Source: Parcubacteria group bacterium LiPW_41 (GTDB lineage: Bacteria > Patescibacteriota > Minisyncoccia > UBA6257 > GWB1-50-10). Taken from it: 64,000 nucleotides of DNA. Below are positions 5,333 to 56,058 of this stretch, in pieces (the stretch's first letter is position 1; each line of letters opens with the position of its first letter). Under the pieces are notes generated by a model. The model was not told the origin of the DNA. It was given only the letters and a program-made list of their open reading frames with translations, and ran no database searches. The position numbers and the translations under genes were made by a program. The stretch spans positions 39,462 to 103,461 of the forward strand of contig VMEM01000001.1 of NCBI GenBank assembly GCA_007375535.1, read 5' to 3'.

Positions 5333-5940
5333 TCAATTATCATTGTGCCAATCTCTCCCGCGTCCTCATGTCCTGGAAGATCACATCGAAACACAAATTC
5401 CCCCTTTCGGACCGCATAAAACTGAATTCCTCTTGATTCGTTAGGGCCCAAACTGATATTAACCGGGGAAAACAACTGGTCTTTAAATGCAAAGGAATGT
5501 GACTTTTTCCCACTATTTTCAAGTACAAACACCACCTGTTCCCCCTCTTTCACTGAAAATATTTTTGGAGAAAAACCTTTTTCATTAACCGTCATTTTTA
5601 CTACTCCATTTGGCAACTCTCCTTTTGGTAATGGAACCGAAGCTTGTGGTTGAGGAATATTTGTTGGATATGTTTGTATAGGCTCTCCATCTGAGGTTGG
5701 AGGAACATATGAATTTACTTCTTCCGAATTGTTTCCACTAATAAGGGCCTTAATTGGTGCAAAAAATGACAAATCAAACAAACTCTTTTTTTCCGTTGTT
5801 TGAGTTGATGAAAAATCTTTATTCTTTATTTTTGTAAGTTTGTCTTTGGGTACTACCGCAATAATGCTAAAAAACACAACACCAATAACAATGAGTCCGA
5901 CAAAAAGCAAAGTAATAATAAAACGAACTACATTTTGCAT
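5329..5940 (-). CDS. Hypothetical membrane-anchored protein, possibly with a cupredoxin-like C-terminal domain
   Basis: N-terminal TM helix. The C-terminal C-x4-H-x9-M spacing (FRCDLPGHEDAGEIGTM) is weakly type-1-copper-like. Confidence 0.4.
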   Translation of the reverse strand: MQNVVRFIITLLFVGLIVIGVVFFSIIAVVPKDKLTKIKNKDFSSTQTTEKKSLFDLSFFAPIKALISGNNSEEVNSYVPPTSDGEPIQTYPTNIPQPQASVPLPKGELPNGVVKMTVNEKGFSPKIFSVKEGEQVVFVLENSGKKSHSFAFKDQLFSPVNISLGPNESRGIQFYAVRKGEFVFRCDLPGHEDAGEIGTMIIE

Positions 5941-5997
5941 ACTATGTTTATTCTAACAAAATACACAATAACAAACTAATTTAATCTATTATTGTGT

Positions 5998-6267
5998 GCG
6001 CTCGGATACCCTTCGAGTCCTAAAATACAAATACAAAAAATCGCTCTTCGAGCGATATTTTGTATTTGTGCCCTCGTGAGGACTTTCCTCACCCGTCGCT
6101 TTCGCTCCTCCTTTGGAATCCTGGGTTCCTCGCTTCCGCTCATCCTCGACAAGCTCGGATTCGCTTTTCGCATTCGCGCGCTCGGATACCCTTCGAGTCC
6201 TAAAAATACAAATACAAAAAATCGCTCTTCGAGCGATATTTTGTATTTGTGCCCTCGTGAGGACTCG
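5998..6267 (-). repeat. tRNA-Arg trailer element, containing two 87-bp near-identical direct repeats
   Basis: The direct repeats are at 5998-6084 and 6178-6267. Each carries the last 17 nt of tRNA-Arg, a hairpin ACAAATACAAAA…TTTTGTATTTGT and an antisense T-arm (AGGACTCGAAGG). The 93-bp GC-rich spacer contains GAGCGAAAGCGACGG. Confidence 0.8.
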
Positions 6268-6321
6268 AACCTCAATTACGAGATCCGCAATCTCGCGTCC
6301 TATCCATTGAACGACGAGGGC
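6250..6321 (-). tRNA. tRNA-Arg, anticodon GCG as read
   Basis: Hand-folded cloverleaf with acceptor GCCCTCG/CGAGGGC, T-loop GGTTCGAGTCC and anticodon loop TTGCGGA. No encoded CCA. Confidence 0.75.
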
Positions 6322-6342
6322 GTAACATACACTTGTATGTTG

Positions 6343-6413
6343 TGCGGGCAAGGAGAATCGAACTCCTGTCTCAACCTTGGCAAGGTCGTGTTCTACCACT
6401 AAACCATGCCCGC
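6343..6413 (-). tRNA. tRNA-Gly(GCC)
   Basis: Cloverleaf with acceptor GCGGGCA/TGCCCGC, anticodon loop TTGCCAA and T-loop TTCGATT. Confidence 0.8.
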
Positions 6414-6458
6414 AAAACTATTTCTATTTAACACTAGAATACAAAAAAAATCCAGTTT

Positions 6459-6620
6459 TTATTGGGTAGGAGGTGGGCCGTACGGACCACGAACCGATGG
6501 TGGCCCAACTGGCCCCTTAAATGTCGTTTTTGGCTCCTCTGTTTTTTTAAAAACTGATGAAAAAATAAATAAAAGTATTATGCAAATACAAACAATAATC
6601 AAAAAAATAATTTTCTTCAT
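6459..6620 (-). CDS. Small secreted peptide with a signal peptide and a Gly/Pro-rich collagen-like tail (speculative)
   Basis: MKKIIFLIIVCICIILLFIFSSVF followed by KGPVGPPSVRGPYGPPPTQ. The competing plus-strand ORF overlaps tRNA-Gly. Confidence 0.3.
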   Translation of the reverse strand: MKKIIFLIIVCICIILLFIFSSVFKKTEEPKTTFKGPVGPPSVRGPYGPPPTQ

Positions 6621-6624
6621 ACAC

Positions 6625-7107
6625 TTAAAAACCAATAAAGTCTGCGAGAATACTCCCTGCAGTTTCTTCGTGTTCAATTTCAGGAAGATATTCCGCAAGA
6701 TATGGGCGAACTGACTTTAGTGTTATAACATCGATAGGGATATGAATATGTGGTTTTGTGTTTCCTCTCTGATGAATCACCAATTCATGGAGTTGGTTCA
6801 TACGCTCTCGAACAGAAAATGCAATAAGTTTTTCATATGGATATATTTTCTTTCCGATCCAAAGTCCTTGTTTATCCAAACGAAATTCATAAATAATAGG
6901 ACGTCGACGAGAAAAAGAAAAAAGTAAACCAGTTGCAGTAAGAATAAAAACAGCAAATAAAAAGTTTTTTTGCCACAAAGAAACAACAAAGAAGACGATT
7001 GCGACGAGACTGATGATAACATACCATCCAATTTCCTTTTCGCGATGTTCGTGTTCAGCGGCGCGCCACAACAATTCTTTTCGTTCTACTTTTTGTACTG
7101 GCTCCAT
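6625..7107 (-). CDS. Hypothetical membrane protein with 2 TM helices
   Basis: 160-aa ORF with two hydrophobic helices. No recognisable motif. Confidence 0.5.
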   Translation of the reverse strand: MEPVQKVERKELLWRAAEHEHREKEIGWYVIISLVAIVFFVVSLWQKNFLFAVFILTATGLLFSFSRRRPIIYEFRLDKQGLWIGKKIYPYEKLIAFSVRERMNQLHELVIHQRGNTKPHIHIPIDVITLKSVRPYLAEYLPEIEHEETAGSILADFIGF

Positions 7108-7124
7108 AATATATTTATTATAGT

Positions 7125-7156
7125 ATAAACCGCACAGTAATGTGCGGTTTATTTTG
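7125..7156. terminator. Hairpin AAACCGCACA/TGTGCGGTTT in the tRNA-Cys trailer
   Basis: Perfect 10-bp stem with a GTAA loop. Confidence 0.5.
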
Positions 7157-7228
<72 letters not shown>

Positions 7229-7242
7229 ATTATTATACTTTT

Positions 7243-7551
7243 TTATTTCGAATCTTCAGACTTCTCTGGTTCTACAATTTCAAATTTCAAATATGGCATC
7301 GGCTTTATATTGAGCTTTTTTAGGAGTTTAAACCTAATATCACTCGCCGCTCTTGAAACTATTTTATATACCTCCAAACTCTTTTCATACGGAATGATAC
7401 CAAGCTTTACATTCGCATGCAATAAATCCTTTTCAACTTCAGTCTCCATTATTGTTACTAAGGCTCCCTCAAAATTAAAATCACGAGAAAACATTTTTCC
7501 CAATTCTTCCGTGATTAATGACGATAGTTTTAGATCTCTAAATGGCCGCAT
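7243..7551 (-). CDS. rbfA: Ribosome-binding factor A
   Basis: RbfA-like sequence lying downstream of infB, as in the conserved gene order. Confidence 0.8.
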   Translation of the reverse strand: MRPFRDLKLSSLITEELGKMFSRDFNFEGALVTIMETEVEKDLLHANVKLGIIPYEKSLEVYKIVSRAASDIRFKLLKKLNIKPMPYLKFEIVEPEKSEDSK

Positions 7552-7568
7552 ATTTTGAATTAAATAAA

Positions 7569-9038
7569 TTAGTCTAGAAACACTAGATGATTTCCAATTC
7601 GTATATCTGATTCACACTCTACAAGCATTCCCACCTCCATGTCCTTCTCTGCTTCTGCAACATCCTTTTTATTTGATTGAAGATTGAGAATTCTTCCCTC
7701 TCCCGTTTTTCTCGTTCCATGCCACACTTCAAATGATTCATTTCTCAATATTGGACCACACAACACTTTTCCACCAATCACTCGCTCTTTTCCTTTTGGT
7801 TGTCCAAACACTCCAAGAATTTCAAGTGTTCTCTTTTCTTTTTCAATTGCGGTTTTTGCATATTCAGTAAGTGCATCAACAAGTTCATAAATAATATCTG
7901 AAGTAATAATATTTATTTTTTTTGTCTCACGCATGTTTTGAGCTGCTTTATCAATTTTTGTGTGAAACCCAATGATAGTTGCTTTCATCCCCTCTGCATC
8001 CTTTGTATCATTTTCAGTAATTGAACCAACAGAAGCTTTTATAATAATAATCGGAAGTGTAGTAACAAGTGATTCAATAGTATCTTTTAATACCTCAAGC
8101 GATCCAAGCTCATCTGCTTTCAAGAACAACGGAACCCTTTTTGATACATCATCTTCTGCAATCAAACTTTTTGTCACCTCGTGCTGTTCTCGTTCAAATT
8201 GTTCTAATGATGTACGGAGTACTTTCTCGTCTCTATGTGCACAAAATACCTCACCCACTTTTGGAGAATTTTCAAATCCAAATACAATTGCCGGTGCACT
8301 TGGAATTATTTCTTTTGCAGTTTTTCCTAAATAGTTTTCAAGTATTTTTACTTTTCCAATTGCAGTATGGGTTGCAATCATAGCTCCTTGCTCAAGTGAT
8401 CCATTTTTTACAATTACACTCGTCATCACACCACGTTTCGCATCCGATTTTACCGAAATGACAACGCCTGACGAAACATGATCTCCCGTACAATGGATAT
8501 CTTCAAGTTCTGATGCAAGAAGTAAAAGATCAAGTAGATCGGAAACACCCTCCCCTGTTTTTGCAGAAATTGCATGCCATGAAACATCCCCTCCTCGTCC
8601 CTCAAGATACACCCCTAATTGCATTAAATCATTAATTGCTTTATCAATATCTGCACCAGGTTTATCTATTTTGTTTATAGCAACAACAAATGGAACTTTT
8701 TCAGCAAGAATATATTTCAATGCATCTTTTGTTTGTGGTTTTACGCCATCATCTGCTGCTACAACTAAAATTGCTAAATCAGCAACACGTGCTCCACGAG
8801 CGCGCATCTTTGAAAATGCTTCATGTCCTGGTGTATCAATAAAAGTTATTTTTTGTCCCGCGTGTTCAATTTCGTATGCACCGATTGATTGAGTAATTCC
8901 TCCCGCCTCACGAAGTGCAACATTGGTACTTCGAATATAATCAAGTAATGTTGTTTTTCCATGATCAACATGACCCATAATAACCGCTATTGGCGGTCTT
9001 CGTTCTGGATTTTTTTGTTCTACTTTTTTGGGGGTCAT
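7569..9038 (-). CDS. infB: Translation initiation factor IF-2, short form without the long N-terminal region
   Basis: G-domain motif GHVDHGKTTLLD and a full IF-2 C-terminal domain architecture. Confidence 0.9.
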   Translation of the reverse strand: MTPKKVEQKNPERRPPIAVIMGHVDHGKTTLLDYIRSTNVALREAGGITQSIGAYEIEHAGQKITFIDTPGHEAFSKMRARGARVADLAILVVAADDGVKPQTKDALKYILAEKVPFVVAINKIDKPGADIDKAINDLMQLGVYLEGRGGDVSWHAISAKTGEGVSDLLDLLLLASELEDIHCTGDHVSSGVVISVKSDAKRGVMTSVIVKNGSLEQGAMIATHTAIGKVKILENYLGKTAKEIIPSAPAIVFGFENSPKVGEVFCAHRDEKVLRTSLEQFEREQHEVTKSLIAEDDVSKRVPLFLKADELGSLEVLKDTIESLVTTLPIIIIKASVGSITENDTKDAEGMKATIIGFHTKIDKAAQNMRETKKINIITSDIIYELVDALTEYAKTAIEKEKRTLEILGVFGQPKGKERVIGGKVLCGPILRNESFEVWHGTRKTGEGRILNLQSNKKDVAEAEKDMEVGMLVECESDIRIGNHLVFLD

Positions 9039-9059
9039 AATAATGGGAAAATACCTTCG

Positions 9060-9286
9060 AAAGTTGCTTCGCTTTGAAATAATTAAAAAATGTACATTTT
9101 TTAATATGTAGTCCCAAGGGGAATCCTTTCAACTAATCACTCGCCGTCGCTCGTGATTGTTTCAAGCCTGGGCTCACGGTGTATTCTACTGAATACACAT
9201 CGCTCCGCCCTTCGTTTCCCCACACGAAACAAGAAATTGTTTCGTTTTGGGATAATTAAAAAAATCTAAAAATTTTTTTAATCAGT
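9060..9286 (-). repeat. tRNA-Glu trailer element
   Basis: The distal end carries TAGTCCCAAGGGGAATC (9109-9125), a copy of the tRNA-Glu 3' end, with similar A/T hairpin flanks. The core contains GGGGAAACG, the hairpins GTGTATTC/GAATACAC and CGAAACAA/TTGTTTCG, and GAGCGACGGCGAG. Confidence 0.75.
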
Positions 9287-9356
9287 AGTCCCAAGGGGAA
9301 TCGAACCCCTATTTCCGCCGTGAAAGGGCGATGTCCTAACCGTTAGACGATGGGAC
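9287..9356 (-). tRNA. tRNA-Glu(UUC)
   Basis: Anticodon loop CTTTCAC and T-loop GGTTCGATTCC. Resembles canonical bacterial tRNA-Glu. Confidence 0.8.
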
Positions 9357-9367
9357 CAAACTGGGTG

Positions 9368-9454
9368 CGGAGGCGGAAGGATTCGAACCTTCGGAGGAGT
9401 TCCCCCCTCGACTTCTTAGCAGGAAGCCGCTTTCGACCGCTCAGCCACGCCTCC
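9368..9454 (-). tRNA. tRNA-Ser(GCU), type II
   Basis: Anticodon loop CTGCTAA, a long variable arm, discriminator G and acceptor GGAGGCG. Confidence 0.8.
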
Positions 9455-9571
9455 ACCCACATAACAGAGTGTACGATAAATATTCAATTTATTCAAGAAA
9501 CTAATACTTGGTAAACACATAATACTATCACGCTTTACGCGTCATCCTAATATAAGATATAATTTTTATAT

Positions 9572-10075
9572 ATGTCGAAGAGAAAGTGGACTCAAAAACA
9601 ACTCGAAGAAGCAATTAATTCTTCAACAAGCAATCGACAGGTTTTAAAAAAGTTGGGATTAAAGGAGGCGGGAGGAAATTATAGCCAAATAAAAAAATAC
9701 TCAAAAGAATTTAAAATCGATACTAGCCATTTCAAAGGTCAAGCGTGGAACAAAGGAAAGAAGGGACTAGGGAAGCCAAGAATCCCTTTATCAGAAATTT
9801 TGGTAGAAAATAGTAATTTCCAAAGTTTTAAATTAAAAAAAAGGTTATTTGCAGAAAAATTAAAATCTGAGTATTGTGAACACTGTGGGTGGGCAAAAAA
9901 ATCAAAAGATGGTAGGATTCCTCTTGAGCTCGATCATATAAATGGAAGAAGAAACGACAACAGAATAGAGAACCTTCGTATTCTTTGTCCAAATTGCCAC
10001 TCATTACAACCAACACATAGAGGTAAAAACATAAAGACTGCCCAGATGGCGGAACGGTATACGCGCAACACTTAA
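9572..10075 (+). CDS. HNH homing-endonuclease-like protein
   Basis: HNH motif CEHCGW…LELDHINGRRNDNRIENLRILCPNCHSL. The last 36 nt of the ORF overlap tRNA-Leu. Confidence 0.75.
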   Translation: MSKRKWTQKQLEEAINSSTSNRQVLKKLGLKEAGGNYSQIKKYSKEFKIDTSHFKGQAWNKGKKGLGKPRIPLSEILVENSNFQSFKLKKRLFAEKLKSEYCEHCGWAKKSKDGRIPLELDHINGRRNDNRIENLRILCPNCHSLQPTHRGKNIKTAQMAERYTRNT

Positions 10076-10122
10076 AATGTTGTGACCCAACGGTCTTGTG
10101 GGTTCGAATCCCACTCTGGGCA
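10040..10122 (+). tRNA. tRNA-Leu(UAA), type II
   Basis: Acceptor GCCCAGA/TCTGGGC, anticodon loop CTTAAAA and a long variable arm. Confidence 0.8.
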
Positions 10123-10350
10123 CAAATTCTACAACACCCTTCATGGGTGTTGTAGAATTTATTCATCAAGGGATTCGAAGGATATTCGAGCGCCCGAATG
10201 GGAAGAGTGAGTAAAATGAACGAAAGCGAGAAACCAAGGCTTCGGAGGAGGCACGAGAGTGCCGGAGGAGAAGAAATCCAACGTCGACCTACCAGTGAAT
10301 AAACCAAACACAAAACAATACCGCCAGTCCTTGGACTGGCGGTATTTTTA
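10123..10350 (+). repeat. tRNA-Leu trailer: terminator hairpin, a divergent GC-rich structured element, and a second terminator
   Basis: Hairpin TTCTACAACACCC/GGGTGTTGTAGAA, then the antisense T-arm AAGGGATTCGAAGG, GAACGAAAGCGAG, the hairpin GGCAC-GAGA-GTGCC, then ACCGCCAGTCC/GGACTGGCGGT with a T-run. Confidence 0.6.
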
Positions 10351-11001
10351 TTTTGCTTCTTTTTTTTCTTTCTTAAACAACTGATATGAATAAACAAAAA
10401 GTCCTATAATTCCGAAAATGAGTGGAATAAGAAACACAAGAAATGAGACAGTGGGAAATACAACACCAAGACATGCAACAACCCCTATAATTTTAAATAC
10501 TTTCCCTCCGAGTTTATGCGTTTTATCCCAAACCATTTCACTTGAAAGTGTCCATGGATTTCGAATACCCATAGTCCAATTCTGTTTTACCCGTTCAATA
10601 AGGAATCCCAATCCAATAAACAAGAAGCCAAAGAGAAACGGAAACACACGAGCGGGATCAATCCACGCTACAAGATTTGTTCCGATGATAAATAGTTGAA
10701 GGAGAAAAAAGAATGAACAGAGAAGAACAAGAAACGCATCATATATTCCCCTCATCTTTTCAATCACCTCTTTTTTTGGATCAAAATGGGGTACTGCAAC
10801 AAGAATTATGAGTAATACAAGTAAGATAATTGGAACAAATAAAATACCCCACAACTTCGACATGTATCCATTTACTTCCCCCATCGCCCCCCAGTGCGAC
10901 GCAATCTCGTCGGGAAGTACTGGGTAAAAATAAACCCCAACAAGTAGCGAGAGAACAATAATACCTAATGAAATTGCTACACCTTTAGTAAAAATCTTCA
11001 T
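10348..11001 (-). CDS. SdpI/YhfL-family membrane protein
   Basis: DUF1648-like YPVLPDEIASHW and the SdpI motif GIRNPWTLSSEMVWDKTH. Multi-TM. Confidence 0.7.
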   Translation of the reverse strand: MKIFTKGVAISLGIIVLSLLVGVYFYPVLPDEIASHWGAMGEVNGYMSKLWGILFVPIILLVLLIILVAVPHFDPKKEVIEKMRGIYDAFLVLLCSFFFLLQLFIIGTNLVAWIDPARVFPFLFGFLFIGLGFLIERVKQNWTMGIRNPWTLSSEMVWDKTHKLGGKVFKIIGVVACLGVVFPTVSFLVFLIPLIFGIIGLFVYSYQLFKKEKKEAK

Positions 11002-11063
11002 AATTTCTATTATAGTACCACCTACTACACAAAAATTAAATTGTCTGATATTCTAATCCAGTT

Positions 11064-11151
11064 GGAAGGTTGGCAGAGTGGTCGAATGCGCCGCACTTGA
11101 AATGCGGTATGCCGAAAGGCATCGGAGGTTCGAATCCTCCACCTTCCGCCA
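11064..11151 (+). tRNA. tRNA-Ser(UGA), type II, with encoded CCA
   Basis: Acceptor GGAAGGT/ACCTTCC, anticodon loop CTTGAAA, a long variable arm, and an encoded 3' GCCA. Confidence 0.8.
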
Positions 11152-11155
11152 ACAT

Positions 11156-11190
11156 AAAAAGTACACCACTTGGTGTACTTTTTATGTTTT
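11156..11190. terminator. Hairpin AGTACACCA/TGGTGTACT with A/T flanks
   Basis: Perfect 9-bp stem. Confidence 0.6.
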
Positions 11191-11372
11191 TGATGTGTGG
11201 ATTCGAACCGCAGGCTCCCTATTTTCTTAGTGAGCGAAGCGAGCTTAGAAAATAGCAGTGTCGCACATTGTGCGACCCGCAGTCATTATTTGAGAACGTA
11301 GGTCTCGAGTTCAGCAGAACGAGAGGAGAATCACTAACTTGTAAGCTCATTCATGCGATATATAATTGCTAG
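11186..11372 (+). repeat. Degenerate trailer-element copy after tRNA-Ser(UGA)
   Basis: Begins with the antisense T-arm GTGGATTCGAACC. Contains GTGAGCGAAGCGAGC, the hairpin GTCGCAC att GTGCGAC, and GGTCTCGAG. Confidence 0.45.
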
Positions 11373-11921
11373 GTGCAATACATAACATTTTTCTTTCTCA
11401 TTATCACACTCCTAGTTATTACTGGAGTCATTTATTCACTTTGGCGACTCTTGTTTAAAAAGAATCATGCTCCATTCATCCCAATCCCACATGACGCAAT
11501 TCCGTCACTTGTGGAACATGCTGACATAAATAAAGGAGATGTTGTGTATGATCTTGGGTGTGGAGATGCACGAATACTAAAAATATTAGCGAAAAAATAT
11601 TCTGATGCTCAATTCATAGGAATTGAAAAGGCATTATTCCCCTATATAATTGCAAAAATTTCTTCACTTCGATTTCCAAATATAACAATACGACGAAAAA
11701 ATTTCTTTAAGATACCAATTGCAAATGCAACAGTAGTGATAACCTATTTATTTCCAAGCGTTATGGATCTTTTGCTTCCAAAATTTGAAAAAGAACTTCA
11801 CAACACAAAACTCCTCTCATTTGATTTTCCCTTCTCAAAAAAAGAATATGAAACAATGTATGTAATAAAGGAGCGACAAGGGAAACTTGGATCAAAGATA
11901 TTTATATACCGATTTGAATAA
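11373..11921 (+). CDS. Class I SAM-dependent methyltransferase with an N-terminal TM anchor
   Basis: Motif I VVYDLGCGDARIL. Confidence 0.65.
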   Translation: MQYITFFFLIITLLVITGVIYSLWRLLFKKNHAPFIPIPHDAIPSLVEHADINKGDVVYDLGCGDARILKILAKKYSDAQFIGIEKALFPYIIAKISSLRFPNITIRRKNFFKIPIANATVVITYLFPSVMDLLLPKFEKELHNTKLLSFDFPFSKKEYETMYVIKERQGKLGSKIFIYRFE

Positions 11922-12070
11922 AAAATTGTTTTAGCGTATCATTTCACCATATAATATGAATAAGAAAAATAAACTTGCAAAAAAGAAACATTCGAAGAAA
12001 GCAGGAAAAAAGATAAATTTGCGCGCTCGATAAAACTTTATAAAAAACACCCCACAATTGTGGGATGTTT

Positions 12071-12676
12071 TTATTTATACAACTCACAGATCGCATCAAT
12101 CTGTTTATGCAAATATTCTCCGCGCCACTTATCCTTTTTAGGTAATCGTTTTGTGAGCAATGAAACAAGTGGTAATAAATGATTGCGCGTCTCCTCAATC
12201 TGAGTTTTTTGTTTTTCTCTTGTGCAGTTTTTCAATGTTCGAAGATTATGTAATCGATCACACAACTTCACTAAAATTGTTTTGTTGTCTCCATATATTG
12301 AAAGTCGCTTGAAATAACCTTCTTTTGGTTTCTTTGTAAGAAGTTTCAATCCAATAACTACTTCCTTTCCAAAATTTAACTCAATTCGATACGGAGAAAG
12401 GATGTGTGAATCCTCTAGCACGTCGTGTAACAATGCCATAATAATTGTCTGCGCATCATTCACCTTCAATTCTTCTATTAAAATATGAGCAACTGATTTT
12501 GGATGTTCAAAATATCGGGTCCCGTCGTCTCTCTCTTGGCCACGATGTCCATATTTTGAAAGAATATACGCAGTCTCAATTGCCTCAAGTTCTTTTGGAG
12601 ACATTATTGGCTCCAACTTTGCCATAAACTCCACACGACCAAGATCAATGTATCCATCAGTGTTTGGCTGCTTCAT
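12071..12676 (-). CDS. HD-domain hydrolase of the RelA/SpoT type, similar to the small alarmone hydrolases
   Basis: HD motif LLHDVLED and the downstream DRLHNLRTL. Confidence 0.65.
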   Translation of the reverse strand: MKQPNTDGYIDLGRVEFMAKLEPIMSPKELEAIETAYILSKYGHRGQERDDGTRYFEHPKSVAHILIEELKVNDAQTIIMALLHDVLEDSHILSPYRIELNFGKEVVIGLKLLTKKPKEGYFKRLSIYGDNKTILVKLCDRLHNLRTLKNCTREKQKTQIEETRNHLLPLVSLLTKRLPKKDKWRGEYLHKQIDAICELYK

Positions 12677-12700
12677 TGTTATTAGTATAATTGAGAACTA

Positions 12701-13885
12701 TTAATCAATCACCTCCCTTCTTAGCCGTTCAGGAATTCTAACGAGAATCTCATAAGGGATCGTTCCACACAAACCCGCTATAGAAGTGACAGAGTTTTTA
12801 TTTGATAACTCCTTACTTATCACACAGACCTCGTCTTCCTCTTTTATATTGAAAACTGAAGACACATCAACACTCACCATATTCATACTCACCCTCCCAA
12901 TAATTGAGCAAACGATATTTTGAATATAAATTGTACCAGAGTTAGAAAGTCGACGATCAATACCCTCAAAATATCCAACAGGAATTATTGCGATTTTCAT
13001 TTCTTGATTGGCGGAAAATGTTGCATTATATCCGACAAAATCACCTCGTTTTATTGTTTTAATTCCTACAACCACCGAAAACATCTCAAGCGCAGGAATG
13101 AGGTTTAATTTCCTTTCAGGAACCGGATCAAACCCATATAAACCAATCCCAAGACGAACAACATTTGCATCAAATTGCTTTATATATTGAGTTCCCGCTG
13201 TCGCGCTGATATGGAAATAGCGAATAGCATTAAACTTCGAACGAAATATTGGAACAACGGTGTTCCAAATAGTCTTTTGTCTCTCTACATGTAAGGAATT
13301 TTCAACATCAGCATCAGCAAGATGAGAACAGACTCCATCGATATTGATGTTTTTATTTGATTGAATAAGAGAAATGACATAATCAATATCTTCATATCGA
13401 ATTCCTTGCCGATTCATGCCGGTATCACACTTAATATGAAATATTTGTGGTTGTTTTAATGTTTCAGCAATTTCTCGTACTTGATGTGGAGTAGAAAGTG
13501 TAAAAATAATATTTTTATCGGTATTTTTTATAATATTTGATAAAAATGAATATCCTATCACTAGTATTGGTGTTTTAATATTTTCATTGCGAAGCATAAG
13601 TGCCTCATAGTATGAATCAACGACAAAAAATGGGACGCTTTTTTCGTCAAGAATTTTTGCAACAGGAATTAATCCATGTCCATACGCATTACTTTTTAAC
13701 ACTGGAGCAATCTTTATATCAGATTGTATATTTGAAAACACCTCATAATTATGAAGTAACGCTGATCGAGAAATCTTAATACGCACCAACGGCTCATAAT
13801 CAGTTAATGATTTTCTAAATTTACGAATAAAGTTTCGAAGAAAAACGAGCATATTATTATATATTATTTTCGCTCTCAAACTCAT
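12701..13885 (-). CDS. alr: Alanine racemase
   Basis: PLP-lysine motif VLKSNAYGHG. Confidence 0.85.
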   Translation of the reverse strand: MSLRAKIIYNNMLVFLRNFIRKFRKSLTDYEPLVRIKISRSALLHNYEVFSNIQSDIKIAPVLKSNAYGHGLIPVAKILDEKSVPFFVVDSYYEALMLRNENIKTPILVIGYSFLSNIIKNTDKNIIFTLSTPHQVREIAETLKQPQIFHIKCDTGMNRQGIRYEDIDYVISLIQSNKNINIDGVCSHLADADVENSLHVERQKTIWNTVVPIFRSKFNAIRYFHISATAGTQYIKQFDANVVRLGIGLYGFDPVPERKLNLIPALEMFSVVVGIKTIKRGDFVGYNATFSANQEMKIAIIPVGYFEGIDRRLSNSGTIYIQNIVCSIIGRVSMNMVSVDVSSVFNIKEEDEVCVISKELSNKNSVTSIAGLCGTIPYEILVRIPERLRREVID

Positions 13886-14660
13886 GATATTCTAAATCAA
13901 ACTGGAAATTATTTTTAAAGTATTCTTTTGTCTCCTCAATGGTTGTAAATCCCAACTCATTTTTTCCACTAAACAAATCAAAATAGGCATCTCTATATTT
14001 TTGCAACTTAAACGGGATTTTTTTTGGATCTACATCCCCGCACCGATTCATCTCAATCCATCCATTTTTCGAATATATTCTTTCTCTATTTTTTCCACTA
14101 ACACTCTCATTTATTTGGTTTTCACTTAAAAATATCTGAAGATCTCCCTCACTCGGCAAAACTCCTTTATTAAAAAGAATAGGAAGATTTTCTTGCTTTT
14201 CTTTATCAAGCTCAAACGCATCAAGAAAATCTGGATGCGAGTGCGCATAAAAAAATCCATTATTCTTTTTACCAACACCATGAGTACGCGCCCCAACAGA
14301 AAAAAAGAAAACAGAGTCGCCAACTTTTTCAACTGCTAATTCATATTGATTTTTTTTCCTAACAAACTCTTCAAAAATAGTATTCACCAATAAATTTTCT
14401 TTTGTCTCGACAAAAAAACCAACTTGGTCTTTTGTATAATTTGGAACATTTGGTAGTAAGGCCCAAATATCTTCTACATTTTTCTCCCTAAGTGGGCCTT
14501 CAATACTTGAAACGGGAAGTTTTTGTTTCCACAAATCAAACTCATTTTTTTCTTCTTCTGAATATTTTCCTAATCCAGATTTTTCCATGAGTTTCTTTAC
14601 TTGAACTTCTTTTTCAATATTAGGAGGAAACATTGGAAACTGATCAAACTTTTGTTTCAT
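13857..14660 (-). CDS. Hypothetical protein
   Basis: 267-aa ORF whose stop overlaps the alr start. No recognisable motif. Confidence 0.45.
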   Translation of the reverse strand: MKQKFDQFPMFPPNIEKEVQVKKLMEKSGLGKYSEEEKNEFDLWKQKLPVSSIEGPLREKNVEDIWALLPNVPNYTKDQVGFFVETKENLLVNTIFEEFVRKKNQYELAVEKVGDSVFFFSVGARTHGVGKKNNGFFYAHSHPDFLDAFELDKEKQENLPILFNKGVLPSEGDLQIFLSENQINESVSGKNRERIYSKNGWIEMNRCGDVDPKKIPFKLQKYRDAYFDLFSGKNELGFTTIEETKEYFKNNFQFDLEYHEFESENNI

Positions 14661-14782
14661 TATTCAATAATAGAAGAACCTGTGAATTTAGCCAACGAAA
14701 TAGGTTGTGGTGTTCTATCAGGTGTAAAACCCTAAAAAAGTAAAATGACCTACTGGGATTGCACAGATGCTCATTGTTTTTG

Positions 14783-14853
14783 TGGACCTACGGGGAGTCG
14801 AACCCCGACTTAGCGCATGCCATGCGCTTATTCTACCATTGAATTATAGGCCC
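14783..14853 (-). tRNA. tRNA-Ala(GGC)
   Basis: G3:U70 in the acceptor (GGGCCTA/TAGGTCC), anticodon loop ATGGCAT and T-loop GGTTCGACTCC. Confidence 0.8.
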
Positions 14854-15530
14854 ATATTTTTTCTTAATATTTCAAAGATAACTAAAAATTCATTAAAAAT
14901 ATTAGCAGAAAAATAATCTATTCGACACACGCCTTTATAATTCATTTTTCGTGATTTTTTATTAATAGAACGAGGATCAACTCGCGCTTTATAAAAACAA
15001 GATAAAGGAATATTAGTCAGCTTCGACCAAAAAATTTCCAACTTTTCGATGTTTTGATCATCCCTACACTGTAGGGTACACCTAAACTTACTCTCGTCAA
15101 CCTCATAACAACTCCTTAAAAGATTTAGAAATAATTTAATAATTAATGGATCAGAGTTGCCAATGGTAATACTCCCCTTTTTTGTTTTAGATCCCTCAGC
15201 TAAATAAAGCATAGCAAGAGTAATTTTTTTTGTTTTTTTGTCGTTTAATTCACCAATAACCCACTTATTTTCATTTAATAAATTTTCTAGGTATTTTTTT
15301 CTTTTCTCTTTTTTTACTTCCAGTGCTTTCTGTCTCGCCACCTTCAAATCTTTTACTCGTTTTGTTTCTAATTTTTGTTTTTGAAGATTTGAAAGTTCTA
15401 TACCTTTTAACCAAAATGAAATCGTACTTTTTGGAATGTTGGAACCAAGTGCTCTATTAATTTGCAGAAATGAATAACCCTTTTTTCTCAGGGCTATCAC
15501 ACGTTCTCTCATATTTTTTTGGGTGCTCAC
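14844..15530 (-). CDS. LAGLIDADG-family homing-endonuclease-like protein with an N-terminal HTH
   Basis: Single LAGLIDADG motif LAMLYLAEGSK. Its stop overlaps the 5' end of tRNA-Ala by 10 nt. Confidence 0.7.
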   Translation of the reverse strand: MSTQKNMRERVIALRKKGYSFLQINRALGSNIPKSTISFWLKGIELSNLQKQKLETKRVKDLKVARQKALEVKKEKRKKYLENLLNENKWVIGELNDKKTKKITLAMLYLAEGSKTKKGSITIGNSDPLIIKLFLNLLRSCYEVDESKFRCTLQCRDDQNIEKLEIFWSKLTNIPLSCFYKARVDPRSINKKSRKMNYKGVCRIDYFSANIFNEFLVIFEILRKNMGL

Positions 15531-15569
15531 TATTCAATTGTACCACAGAAGTCATCCATGTCCAAAAAT

Positions 15570-15755
15570 TTTGTGGGCGATAAGGAATCGAACGTCGTCT
15601 CATCAGAATGAGACTCCCACGAACCCAGCGGTTCGTGCGCTCCGCCACTGGGAAACTCCCGTTTCCCCGACCCCTTTCCCAGTTCGAGTCCTGTATATCA
15701 CAAGATATAAAAACAACGCATTTGCTTTAGAAATAGTGCATTGTTTTTATCTATG
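15570..15755 (-). repeat. tRNA-Val(GAC) trailer element
   Basis: In tRNA orientation: a terminator hairpin, the antisense T-arm ATACAGGACTCGAAC, GGGAAAGGGGTCGGGGAAACGGGAGTTTCCC, the hairpins CACGAACC/GGTTCGTG and GTCTCAT/ATGAGAC, and a sense end GTTCGATTCCTTATCGCCCAC. Confidence 0.75.
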
Positions 15756-15829
15756 TGGGCGATACAGGACTCGAACCTGTGACCTTTACAATGTCAATGT
15801 AACGCTCTAACCAGCTGAGCTAATCGCCC
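15756..15829 (-). tRNA. tRNA-Val(GAC)
   Basis: Acceptor GGGCGAT, anticodon loop TTGACAT and T-loop GGTTCGAGTCC. Confidence 0.8.
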
Positions 15830-15834
15830 TTATA

Positions 15835-16155
15835 TTATTTTTCCTTCTTTTCTTTTTTCAATTCTTTCACCGCTTCAGTAAGTGAAACATCAGGATGTTT
15901 TGCAACCGCCTCAAGCATATCTGCAAGCTTCACATATCCGTCATTGAGTGGAAGCTCTTTAGCCTTCATAAACCAATGCTTCTTTTTTCCTCCATCGGCT
16001 TTTTCCAGCTCCAACGCAATCATATCTGGCGTCTCATCATTCTTTAATTTCCTCCCGAGATCTGCCTCTGTTTTTTCAAAGCGTTTATATACTTCTTTTT
16101 TATCCTCCTTCTTCAATTTGTCCATGCCAAAGCTGAAGTGATCAAACATAATCAC
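15835..16155 (-). CDS. Hypothetical small charged protein
   Basis: 106-aa ORF, Lys/Glu-rich. Confidence 0.4.
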   Translation of the reverse strand: MIMFDHFSFGMDKLKKEDKKEVYKRFEKTEADLGRKLKNDETPDMIALELEKADGGKKKHWFMKAKELPLNDGYVKLADMLEAVAKHPDVSLTEAVKELKKEKKEK

Positions 16156-16224
16156 ATAATACCTGAGACATAAAAAAATACAAATCTTTACTCTAATCTA
16201 AGATTAATCTATAAATAGACAGAA

Positions 16225-16296
16225 GCCCTTGTAGTTCAACGGATAGAACAGTGCCGTCCTAAGGCGAAGATGGGAGTTCGATTCTCTCCAAGGGCA
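16225..16296 (+). tRNA. tRNA-Arg(CCU)
   Basis: Acceptor GCCCTTG/CAAGGGC, anticodon loop GTCCTAA and T-loop GTTCGATTC. Confidence 0.75.
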
Positions 16297-16300
16297 CATA

Positions 16301-16387
16301 GGAGGGGTGGCTGAGTGGTCGAAGGCACACGACTCGAAATCGTGCAGGGGTGAAAGCCCCTCGAGAGTTCAAATCTCTCCCCCTCCG
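16301..16387 (+). tRNA. tRNA-Ser(CGA), type II
   Basis: Acceptor GGAGGGG/CCCCTCC, anticodon loop CTCGAAA, a long variable arm and discriminator G. Confidence 0.8.
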
Positions 16388-16590
16388 CTAATATCAAAAC
16401 AATACACTTCATGTGTATTGTTTTATATTCGGAGAGATTTAAACGGGAAAGGGGTCGGGAAAACGGAAGTTTTCCCGTGGTGGAAGTACTGAAACCGCAA
16501 GGTGTCAGAAAATTTCGTCTGCGAAATTTTGTTCAATTCCCTCCCCCTCCACAAACAAAAAACACCATACAAAGTGGTGTTTTTAATTTT
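16388..16590 (+). repeat. tRNA-Ser(CGA) trailer element
   Basis: A terminator hairpin, the antisense T-arm GGAGAGATTTAAAC, GGGAAAGGGGTCGGGAAAACGGAAGTTTTCCCG, TGGTGGAAG, the hairpin CTGAAACC-GCAA-GGTGTCAG, a pseudo-anticodon arm ATTTCG-TCTG-CGAAAT, the sense end GTTCAATTCCCTCCCCCTCCAC, and a second terminator. Confidence 0.8.
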
Positions 16591-17257
16591 TTTCATTTTT
16601 CACAATATTTCCATCAAACAGTGTTATTACTCGATCAGTATACTGCACATATTCTGGTTCGTGGGTAACCATAATTATTGTTTGCCCATCTGCGTGCAAT
16701 TCTTTAAATGTTTTCAAAATAGAAATAGACGTGTCATTATCAAGATTTGCTGTTGGTTCGTCAGCAAATAATATTTTCGGATTGTGTCCCATTGCACGAG
16801 CAATAGAAACACGTTGTTGTTCTCCTCCGGAAAGCTGATTGGGAAGATTATTAAACTTTTCTTTTAGTTCAACGCGCTCTAACACTCTTGCTGATATTTT
16901 TCTTGCGTCAATTTTATTTATTCCTTGTTCCAAAAGTGGAATCATTACATTTTCAATCGCATTCAATTCTGGAATAAGTGCATAATCTTGAAACACATAT
17001 CCAAGTTGAAATAGTCGTAATATGGTCCGCTCCCTATCAGTTAATATGTCTGTGTTCTTCCCTCCAATCTCAATGGTTCCTGACGTTGGTCGATCAAGAA
17101 GACTCAACTGATACATAAGAGTACTTTTTCCAGAACCCGAACGCCCAATGATTGAAATAAATTCTCCGTCGTCAACATCAAAATCAACTCCTTTTAAAAC
17201 GGTGAGCTCTGAGTTTCCACTTTTGAATTTTTTTATGATTTTTCTTGCTTGTATCAT
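16583..17257 (-). CDS. ABC transporter ATP-binding protein of the FtsE/LolD/MacB type
   Basis: Walker A GRSGSGKST and ABC signature LSGGEQQR. Confidence 0.85.
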   Translation of the reverse strand: MIQARKIIKKFKSGNSELTVLKGVDFDVDDGEFISIIGRSGSGKSTLMYQLSLLDRPTSGTIEIGGKNTDILTDRERTILRLFQLGYVFQDYALIPELNAIENVMIPLLEQGINKIDARKISARVLERVELKEKFNNLPNQLSGGEQQRVSIARAMGHNPKILFADEPTANLDNDTSISILKTFKELHADGQTIIMVTHEPEYVQYTDRVITLFDGNIVKNEKN

Positions 17258-55841: not shown

Positions 55842-56058
55842 CACAATAAAACATCATATTTCTCAATATGATGTTTTTGTATGAGGGGATTGAACAAGAA
55901 GGGGTGTTGGGGAAACGTTTGTTTCCCCATGGAGGAAGTATTGAAACCGAGTGGTTTCAAAGCGCAGTCTCGCCCGCAAGACGAGCAGTGAAATTTCCCC
56001 TCAACGCCCACACAAAAACAAAAACATCCTTTTCTAGGATGTTTTTGTTTTCTATTTT
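55842..56058 (+). repeat. tRNA-Val(UAC) trailer element
   Basis: Terminator AAAACATCATAT/ATATGATGTTTT, the perfect antisense T-arm GAGGGGATTGAAC, GGGGAAACGTTTGTTTCCCC, TGGAGGAAG, the hairpin TTGAAACC-GAGT-GGTTTCAA, GTCTCG…CGAG, a 20-nt copy of the tRNA 3' end TCCCCTCAACGCCCACACAA (56004-56023), and a second similar terminator. Confidence 0.8.

Follow-up and report, generated by a model that had tools for sequence, protein, structure and literature searches.

Compact, structured elements with which the present family may be compared fall into several known classes. The attC sites of integrons and the (+) single-stranded DNA (ssDNA) attP of the CTX phage (XerC/D) are sites folded from a single strand, in which the stem recreates a double-stranded target. 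Miniature inverted-repeat transposable elements (MITEs) and the REP/BIME, Correia, RUP and BOX sequences are small structured intergenic repeats that rely on functions supplied in trans. tRNA-like structures are known in the tmRNA domain, the 3′ tRNA-like structure (TLS) of plant viruses, the t-elements of plant mitochondria and the 3′ tag of the Mauriceville retroplasmid, and class C group II introns have their insertion sites immediately behind intrinsic terminators. For islands at tRNA genes, the Islander principle holds that an intact tRNA gene together with a displaced tRNA fragment marks the island end (PMC4383910), and a crossover in the T-loop has been reported for attB of phage Ms6 (PMC1762012). 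Here we describe a family of short, strongly folded units lying directly behind tRNA genes in a 64,000-nt stretch of the genome of Parcubacteria group bacterium LiPW_41 (contig VMEM01000001.1, positions 39,462 to 103,461 of the forward strand; hereafter the window, in whose coordinates positions are given), with particular attention to the copy behind tRNA-Glu(ttc). The family is real and non-random, is not in Rfam, and is not described in the literature we searched. We tentatively read its members as miniature non-autonomous elements of a Paceibacterota (Candidate Phyla Radiation, CPR) lineage that integrate at the 3′ ends of tRNA genes and displace the old 3′ end, an interpretation that may well hold but that we stop short of calling probable.

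Results

Seven tRNA 3′ ends in the window (Glu, Arg-gcg, Leu-taa, Ser-tga, Val-gac, Ser-cga and Val-tac) are followed by a unit of about 110–150 nt with a conserved core of ~90 nt, and all follow a common plan: the tRNA, a hairpin, an inverted copy of the T-arm, a GC-richer core, and a copy of the same tRNA's 3′ end. At least four core types can be told apart, namely G (Glu), A (Val-gac, Ser-cga, Val-tac), B (Arg-gcg, Leu) and S (Ser-tga). The infB gene next to tRNA-Glu places the organism in Candidatus Paceibacterota. The relatives used for comparison are L001, whose translation initiation factor IF-2 is 91% identical, and L011 to L022, syntenic tRNA-rich loci from seven further genomes or strains (96–65% IF-2 identity); L010, an independent ENA assembly record, represents the genome of the window itself. 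A survey of tRNA copies covered 81 tRNAs in 8 genomes, and 198 kb of related sequence was searched with two covariance models, R1 for type G and R2 for type A. For 18 of the 81 tRNAs, the 13 nt made up of their own T-stem 3′ strand, acceptor 3′ strand and discriminator recur without a mismatch 129–174 nt downstream, and each of the 23 non-cognate perfect 13-nt matches is accounted for by a neighboring tRNA gene. The architecture as such recurs at more than 30 sites in the 8 genomes with the same 129–174 nt spacing, and all R1 and R2 matches adjoin tRNA 3′ ends.

ARAGORN and Rfam place tRNA-Glu(ttc) on the minus strand, and the Glu copy is therefore read on that strand. An initial annotation had pointed to a 17-nt duplicate of the tRNA-Glu 3′ end ~175 bp away, and this is confirmed. 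The 17-mer TAGTCCCAAGGGGAATC has two exact occurrences in the window, at 9109–9125 and 9286–9302 (+), against a chance expectation of 0.01 (two or more matches in 0 of 100 shuffles), and on the minus strand the identity amounts to 18 nt (GATTCCCCTTGGGACTAC, at 9285–9302 and 9108–9125) with a spacing of 177 nt. This repeat, designated X (X1 within the tRNA, X2 downstream), extends from G57 in the T-loop across the 3′ strands of T-stem and acceptor to the discriminator plus one base; the well-preserved copies of the family all have an X beginning at C56, G57 or A58 in the T-loop. The two A/T-rich hairpin flanks (9083–9104 and 9256–9281) and the two perfect 8-bp hairpins (GTGTATTC/GAATACAC at 9179–9198 and CGAAACAA/TTGTTTCG at 9225–9244) reported with the duplicate are present as well. 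The unit thus described is ordered as X1, hairpin spacer, inverted T-loop/T-stem copy (the left arm), three-way-junction core and X2, and its parts and surroundings are the following.

9285–9357 (−): tRNA-Glu(ttc), intact (ARAGORN; Rfam tRNA, 63.5 bits), whose last 18 nt are X1 (9285–9302) by repeat position
9256–9281 (−): A/T-only hairpin 1 (TTAAAAAAATTTTTAGATTTTTTTAA), a spacer that sets X1 apart from the element, weakly terminator-like from its sequence
9245–9253 (−): ATCCCAAAA, including TCCCAA, the inverted acceptor 3′ strand (TTGGGA) and, in the minimum free energy (MFE) fold, a mimic of the acceptor 5′ strand
9225–9244 (−): P0 hairpin, CGAAACAA-TTTC-TTGTTTCG, from the sequence
9211–9221 (−): left arm GGGGAAACGAA, the inverted T-stem 3′ strand and T-loop of tRNA-Glu and the 5′ strand of the closing helix P1
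9170–9210 (−): core 5′ domain, with P2 (GGGC:GCCC), a GGA/GA internal loop, P2b and the P3 hairpin (9179–9198), from RNAalifold and pair counts
9126–9166 (−): core 3′ domain, with P4 (CUU:AAG) and the P5 hairpin AAUCAC-GA-GC-GACG-GC-GA-GUGAUU, from RNAalifold and pair counts
9108–9125 (−): X2, the second tRNA-Glu 3′ end, which supplies the 3′ strand to both P1 and the acceptor-like helix, from repeat and fold
9083–9104 (−): A/T-only hairpin 2 (TTAAAAAATGTACATTTTTTAA), a diverged homolog of hairpin 1, from the sequence
9054–9079 (−): TTTCAAAGCGAAGCAACTTTCGAAGG, the degenerate start of a second unit, homologous to TCCCAAAACGAAACAATTTC, from the comparison with L013
9038 (−): infB start codon

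Chance similarity or an assembly artefact has nothing in its favor beyond the shortness of the individual motifs, and is exceedingly improbable given the expectation cited above, the presence of the locus in the independent ENA record and the existence of orthologous copies in four other assemblies.

The left arm shows 0–3 mismatches in 12 to the adjacent tRNA in ~32 units, and it continues to match where X2 has decayed or been lost (Leu and Ser-tga in the window, Glu and Cys in L014). The arm also tracks changes within the T-stem: at Val-gac, where the stem reads ACAGG/CCTGT in the window and ACTGG/CCAGT in L014, the arm follows the tRNA and the X2 there does not. As such, X1, the spacer and the left arm appear to constitute one maintained module, and X2 a relic. 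In the Glu copy, GGGGAAACG is the inverted T-arm of tRNA-Glu, paired with TTCCCC of the repeat, and the same position in orthologs reads GGAGAATCG, GGGGGGTCG and GGGTGAATCG, in step with their tRNAs; an exact complement for the Glu arm would read GGGGAATCGAA, versus the actual GGGGAAACGAA. Orthologous copies of the Glu locus occur in L014, L017 and L019, and in these as in the window the left arm is split by P0 and the TCCCAA feature is retained, with the MFE fold of the window unit pairing UCCCAA with UUGGGA of X2. The apical motif of P0, CAA-NNNN-TTG, is constant upon a stem of variable sequence in nine type G units (window, L001, L014, L016, L017 and L019); at tRNA-Cys the P0 hairpin of type G copies also serves as the terminator. 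One core may furthermore be found behind many tRNAs. Type A stands behind Val, Ser, Leu, Arg, Ala and Gly tRNAs, and type G behind Glu, Cys, Ala and Val tRNAs, the non-Glu sites of the latter being tRNA-Cys in L001 (two in tandem), L016 and L017, tRNA-Ala in L014 and tRNA-Val in L017, and at the sites of both types the arms fit the local tRNA.

The 149-nt Glu unit has an MFE of −58.8 kcal/mol (z = −6.3 versus shuffles). An alignment of eight type G cores, evaluated with RNAalifold and pair counts, yields a consensus three-way junction composed of P1 (the arms), P2-P3 and P4-P5, in which 92.4% of cells are paired and 28 of the 34 pairs show a compensatory change, values that 0 of 500 shuffles reach; slid controls give 33–50% pairing. 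P2 occurs as GGGC:GCCC, CGCC:GGCG and CAGC:GCUG, and P4 as CCC:GGG in most copies and CUU:AAG in the Glu copy. The MFE folds of six copies, obtained independently, show a matching architecture, and type A cores carry compensatory changes within their hairpins at 12 of 27 pairs. With compensatory changes well above the controls, the type G fold appears to be under selection as a single strand, whether RNA or ssDNA, and the covariation is unusually clear for only 8–10 sequences. The folded strand is probably that of tRNA sense, because G·U cells outnumber A·C cells on that strand (16 versus 7), because its loops include GGAA, GGGA, GCAA and GAAA, of the GNRA type, and because the left arm of L017, GUAGUUCCAA, pairs with UUGGGGCUAC via two G·U pairs. 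In the predicted fold of the Glu unit X2 would be fully paired, with UUGGGA:UCCCAA as an acceptor-like helix, UUCCCC:GGGGAA as a T-stem-like helix reaching into the former T-loop, and P0 branching at the position of the tRNA body. An acceptor-like helix upon a T-stem-like helix, ending in the discriminator, is predicted for the Glu copies of the window, L017 and L019 and was not seen in non-Glu copies.

The sole good promoter-like site lies upstream of tRNA-Ser(gct), and in relatives lacking the element 24–49 nt separate tRNA-Glu and infB with no terminator between them; the Glu element is therefore most likely co-transcribed with tRNA-Ser, tRNA-Glu and infB. Separately, a promoter-like site upstream of infB, TTGAAA-18 nt-CATATT (window 9103–9132, minus strand), covers the last part of the Glu core together with X2. 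A promoter might thereby be provided by the element, though A/T hairpin 2 comes after the site.

These observations bear upon the possibility that the units are a structured noncoding RNA, co-transcribed with the tRNA and having a function that needs tRNA-derived arms, with copies arising by local duplication and ordinary recombination. Such an RNA could possibly act as a mimic of the tRNA top half, its T-loop swapped for the three-way junction, and be processed by RNase P/Z and the CCA-adding enzyme; equally, the left arm could possibly bind its own pre-tRNA at the T-arm and 3′ strand, while X2 competes for it from within the RNA. Strong covariation on the sense strand, GNRA-like loops, tandem G·A motifs, the pairing of left arm and X2 kept through two G·U pairs in L017, and the probable location of the Glu copy within the tRNA-infB transcription unit are all consistent with this explanation, as are the occupation of seven tRNA 3′ ends in the window with left-arm complementarity maintained and the retention of the Glu element at its orthologous site, with the full predicted acceptor-like helix, down to 65% IF-2 identity. 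Against it, that helix is kept in the Glu lineage only, the cores are several and unrelated-looking (R1 misses types A and B), no internal promoter was found in the element, and no Rfam match was obtained. Given as well the gains and losses described below, we regard an RNA function of this kind as a serious possibility, albeit one on the doubtful side.

The Glu copy had also been proposed, in the initial annotation, to bridge two sequence subtypes within the window by sharing GGGGAAACG with the Ser and Val copies and GAGCGACGGCGAG with the Arg and Leu copies. The first motif does occur in Glu, Val-gac and Val-tac (3 occurrences versus 0.35 expected), but Ser has GGGAAAACG in its stead, and the motif of the Glu copy is not homologous to that of the Val copies, whose 9-mer forms one side, the 5′ strand, of a hairpin within the core and is no T-arm complement. 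The second is exact only in the Glu copy, with Arg and Leu matching at 10 of 13 positions. The named motifs consequently give no support to a bridge, and Glu is best taken as a third core type. R1 scores the Glu copy at 101 bits and elsewhere in 5800–16800 finds nothing above 10.3 bits, a range covering five of the six other units (Val-tac lies outside it); blastn gives no significant similarity of the Glu copy to the other window units. Types G and B have nothing in common beyond a hairpin motif, GA-GC-tetraloop-GC-GA, and a CCCAG element. The wider proposal of a single family with modular parts was nonetheless right in substance, as the copies share architecture and position and domains have been exchanged between them. 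The other units of the window are listed here.

6068–6201 (−): unit behind tRNA-Arg(gcg), type B, with a 17-nt X2 at 6068–6084
5998–6067 (−): truncated tandem second unit after the Arg-gcg unit (tRNA 3′ end, terminator and the initial 24 nt of core), a partial unit of 71 nt at 98.6% identity
10170–10295 (+): unit behind tRNA-Leu(taa), type B, whose left arm matches Leu and whose right arm does not
11197–11341 (+): unit behind tRNA-Ser(tga), S core, with a decayed right arm
15573–15696 (−): unit behind tRNA-Val(gac), type A (R2, 105.8 bits)
16431–16552 (+): unit behind tRNA-Ser(cga), type A (R2, 108.8 bits)
55883–56011 (+): unit behind tRNA-Val(tac), type A, with a 16-nt X2 (R2, 99 bits)

The right arm of the Leu unit, GAAATCCAACGTCGACCTACCAG (10270–10295, plus strand), resembles the 3′ end of another tRNA with an encoded CCA. 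In the window, tRNA-Cys, tRNA-Ala and those tRNAs with another tRNA gene close behind have no unit, tRNA-Ala having a decayed mini-version only: within ~25 nt behind this tRNA its 3′ end recurs in decayed form (..CCCAGTAGGTCA, window 14746–14781, minus strand), preceded by a stub resembling GGAGCG..CGCGAC. In L011 (6860–6990) and in L017 (downstream of 7629) the tRNA-Ala mini-trailer carries an extra nested or tandem repeat of ~65 nt.

Comparison with relatives reveals a polymorphic family. tRNA-Glu stands without an element in L001, L011, L016 and L021. In L013 (IF-2 96%), tRNA-Glu is followed by hairpin 1, nearly intact, then by CCCAAAACGAAACAAC and TTTTGAAGG...ATG, a sequence that is the recombination product of the window repeats ...TATCCCAAAACGAAACAAT and ...TATTTCAAAGCGAAGCAAC. 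Loss is therefore repeat-mediated, and the right flank of the window copy is the stump of a second unit (9054–9079), which was the right-hand partner in the recombination behind the L013 deletion. Gain has a polarity: behind tRNA-Ala of L014 and tRNA-Ser(cga) of L011 a new unit, complete with a separate spacer, parts the tRNA from the ancestral flank, and at the latter site the remnant of an older type A unit lies beyond the new one. Tandem arrays are found at Cys (two units) and Arg (at least three) of L001 and at Arg of the window (1.4 units). The cores are furthermore shuffled. The 3′ domain of the window Glu copy is 100% identical to the tRNA-Cys copies of L001 (a 91% relative) and its 5′ domain 83% identical to the tRNA-Ala copy of L014 (a 74% relative), and the core is only 45–71% identical to the orthologous Glu copy of L014; the window Glu core is a mosaic. 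Frequent loss, decay, truncation, tandem duplication and replacement of the core type at one tRNA, together with the lack of the element at the same tRNA in close relatives, are more like the behavior of selfish DNA than of the structured RNA considered above.

Several further features of these loci may be recorded in their own right. The tRNA-Glu T-loop of L001 (6114–6186) and L011 (9898–9970) reads TCCGATT (GGGGTCCGATTCCCC) in place of TTCGATT, an unusual TTC to TCC change, since position 55 hardly ever varies. In L014 (9687–9856) the tRNA-Ser(gct)/tRNA-Glu pair has been turned around with respect to infB, and in L017 (734–1226) these tRNA genes converge, Ser-gct being followed by the remnant of a left arm; the rearrangements in these two loci concentrate at elements bearing inverted repeats. 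Short GC-rich palindromic hairpins with loops CCTAGG, CCTTGGG and GCCGGT lie within trailer elements of L011 (12931–13100) and L014 (9490–9530, minus strand), one of them inside X2 of the L014 Glu copy, and look like a separate tiny insertion family.

Open reading frames (ORFs) adjoin some of the same tRNAs. A 167-aa ORF resembling HNH homing endonucleases (9572–10075, plus strand; HNH_3, 4.9e-6; PHROG 10822, 3e-46) ends within the first 36 nt of tRNA-Leu(taa) and is absent from L001, L011 and L014; the tRNA-Leu of relatives without HNH is quite different in sequence, a sign that the allele may have been replaced along with the endonuclease gene. A 228-aa ORF (14844–15530, minus strand) with no PDB or PHROG match and a weak helix-turn-helix match only lies between the Val-gac element and tRNA-Ala and overlaps the first 10 nt of the latter; L001 and L014 lack this ORF, and there the element directly adjoins tRNA-Ala. 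An 82-aa GIY-YIG ORF lies between tRNA-Arg(cct) and tRNA-Ser(cga) in L001 (2240–2550) and L011 (5847–6095), flanked by a 16-nt duplicate of the tRNA-Ser 5′ end with a 3-nt leader (ATAGGAGGGGTGGCTG) and by two small GC-rich hairpins, and is an insertion of the 5′-fragment type into a tRNA gene.

One might also consider whether the units result incidentally from breaks at tRNA genes that were repaired again and again, or from slippage during replication there, maybe after cuts by homing endonucleases, which are numerous at these loci, with scars accumulating around a passive sequence. The HNH and GIY-YIG genes and the 228-aa ORF do abut tRNA 5′ ends, the Ser-gct/Glu pair has been inverted and rearranged, RecA and RecO are present, and loss is repeat-mediated. 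Repair scars would not, however, yield conserved cores with compensatory changes, nor a uniform architecture with constrained spacing at so many sites, and we hold this explanation to be quite improbable.

Across copies the direct repeat measures 17–78 nt and is tRNA-derived, and it includes the gene-encoded CCA in the Cys copy of L016. This is pertinent to a non-autonomous retroelement, in which an external reverse transcriptase (RT) would copy the core RNA, switch template onto the 3′ end of a pre-tRNA and stop in the T-loop, with the cDNA integrating by homology. Variants of the Neurospora Mauriceville retroplasmid, to which this explanation may be likened, acquire tRNA sequences. Related reading on that comparison is available (PMC9925561). 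Copying X afresh from each target would account for target-matched repeats, the young repeats of L016 Cys and L021 Gly begin in the T-loop and take in the whole terminator T-tract, at whose end the transcript is likely to stop, and the encoded CCA, the RNA-like core and a Glu-type 3′ end reminiscent of a tRNA-like tag would also fit. However, no RT turned up in the scanned ORFs, the repeats copy the gene and not the mature tRNA (no CCA is added where the gene has none), and the inverted left arm needs extra steps. Simple fold-back cDNA is excluded by the spacer hairpin loops, both of which have the same, not inverted, orientation in the Cys copies of L016 and L001, and fold-back priming of the spacer was rejected on this ground. 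A retroelement origin is thus improbable in our estimation.

Searches for known families were otherwise negative. Only tRNAs pass an Rfam 15 gathering scan, in an E-value scan of 5900–16700 no core reaches half a gathering score, and the 177-nt unit contains no ORF. A pattern scan of metagenomes for the core 3′ domain returned six matches, apparently by chance, the four inspected being GC-rich and unrelated. Several candidate identities were also rejected. As for hammerhead-like, HDV or twister ribozymes, CTGATGAG in the Val-gac copy is one hairpin arm, and there is no Rfam ribozyme match; for guide RNAs (a TnpB/IscB-like scaffold, an IS110 bridge RNA or a CAST homing crRNA), there is no associated protein and the would-be guide is paired to the left arm. 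Insertion into the T-loop with the T-stem 5′ strand as left flank is at odds with a left arm that follows the 3′ strand (CGGG not TGGG, L001 Cys) and with an inverted loop. A MITE is at odds with outer arms that vary with the tRNA, a tRNA-derived direct repeat of such variable length, and the lack of any transposase found. An integron attC is at odds with arms of the form (N)AATCGAAC...GTTCGAWT, in which C at the fourth position breaks GTTRRRY, and the window has neither cassette ORFs nor an intI.

Discussion

An intact tRNA accompanied by a 3′ fragment starting in the T-loop, new units placed proximal to the tRNA, tandem arrays and repeat-mediated loss are what lead us to the integrative-element reading, which we put forward as tentative. 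Under this explanation a unit would enter a tRNA gene by recombination within X, with the crossover in or near the T-loop. The element's own X would complete the tRNA, and the old 3′ end would be pushed ~130–175 nt downstream to become X2, which would later decay; on this best explanation X2 is what is left of the original tRNA 3′ end after its displacement. Tandem units would come from repeated insertion or from unequal crossing-over, recombination between repeats would give deletions, and recombination between copies at different tRNAs or in different genomes would shuffle the core domains. The element may act as a folded single strand of tRNA sense, RNA or ssDNA, with the fold presumably recognized by a trans-acting enzyme. 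A left arm that tracks its tRNA where X2 is no longer recognizable is expected if X1, spacer and left arm are inherited as a module and X2 is displaced.

A number of results weigh against this reading. The window is housekeeping DNA (aminoacyl-tRNA synthetase genes, RecA, FtsK, GyrA, NusA and FtsH), and no integrase, RT or transposase was found when 37 window ORFs, most of them 110 aa or longer, were scanned with Pfam, or in the precomputed annotations of 9 loci, inclusive of Pfam for 1–20 kb of L010. Four core motifs have no copy in viral contigs, where no larger gene-carrying version came to light (a 14-mer gave at least 120 chance matches there, and R1 scored none of the 80 loci screened). 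Cognate fragments farther than ~320 nt from the tRNA were found at no locus, the matches to distant fragments being tRNAs that share a 3′ end and one likely chance match. On mechanistic grounds, a simple crossover in the T-loop would hand the new target the donor's acceptor strand and so break the tRNA; the matching of arms to a new tRNA is left unaccounted for, hairpin- or repeat-templated conversion being a conjecture; and the repeat of some young copies also covers the hairpin after X (50 identical nt in L016 Cys), such that a second event is needed. Last, the GNRA-type loops, tandem G·A pairs and excess of G·U cells are RNA-like, and the core is better conserved than an attachment site needs, which fits an RNA function at least as well.

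We also consider a new class of tRNA-mimicking RNA element without a dedicated integrase, which might be mobile, carry a tRNA top-half tag and recopy the 3′ end of its target tRNA at every insertion, or might be a cis- or trans-acting RNA that pairs with the T-arm and 3′ strand of the adjacent tRNA and thereby senses or controls tRNA maturation in ultra-small CPR bacteria. This would appear unlikely, if not strongly so.

If the integrative-element reading holds, the tRNA genes of reduced CPR genomes are routinely occupied by a protein-less structured element, which would be, to our knowledge, the smallest tRNA-gene "island". By overwriting the 3′ end and T-stem of a tRNA, such an element may drive tRNA gene evolution as well as local rearrangements. 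The family offers a tractable case either for the retargeting of non-autonomous elements to new tRNAs or for a new tRNA-linked RNA function, and for annotation it accounts for many of the GC-rich "orphan" intergenic blocks and partial-tRNA matches in metagenome-assembled genomes of Patescibacteria.

Each of the known systems resembles the present family in part. Like class C group II introns, the element sits directly downstream of a terminator-like hairpin, has a segment complementary to the upstream flank and forms tandems, but its core is 5–8 times too small and lacks domain V/VI, GUGYG...AY ends and any Rfam intron match. With MITEs and the allied intergenic repeats it has in common that it is small, non-coding, multi-copy, bounded by terminal inverted repeats and strongly folded, and that it would need activities provided in trans; its terminal repeats, however, are target-derived and site-specific, it has no short fixed target-site duplication, it is found at tRNA 3′ ends only, and no related autonomous insertion sequence was found for the family. 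The imperfect inverted repeats ~60–140 nt apart, whose folding rebuilds the double-stranded target in a hairpin stem, the conservation of structure above sequence and the cassette-like tandems recall attC and the CTX attP, whereas the arms are copies of the tRNA T-arm and not R''/R' (GTTRRRY) or dif, the center is a conserved branched fold and not a variable loop, and no integron integrase or attI is evident. In the manner of tRNA-like structures, the ends of the Glu lineage are predicted to form a 7–8-bp acceptor-like helix on a T-stem-like helix with the discriminator retained; unlike them, the element has its T-loop replaced by a ~90-nt domain, has neither anticodon nor D arm, and shows the predicted acceptor helix in Glu copies only. 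Relative to the islands that tyrosine integrases insert at tRNA genes, the unit measures 110–180 bp and not kilobases, carries no integrase or other gene, and possesses an extra inverted T-loop/T-stem copy, a covarying three-way junction and a single core at many tRNAs. It nevertheless has in common with those islands the regenerated tRNA, the same-orientation 3′ fragment that begins in the T-loop, the outward displacement of older units, the tandem arrays and the loss by recombination between repeats.

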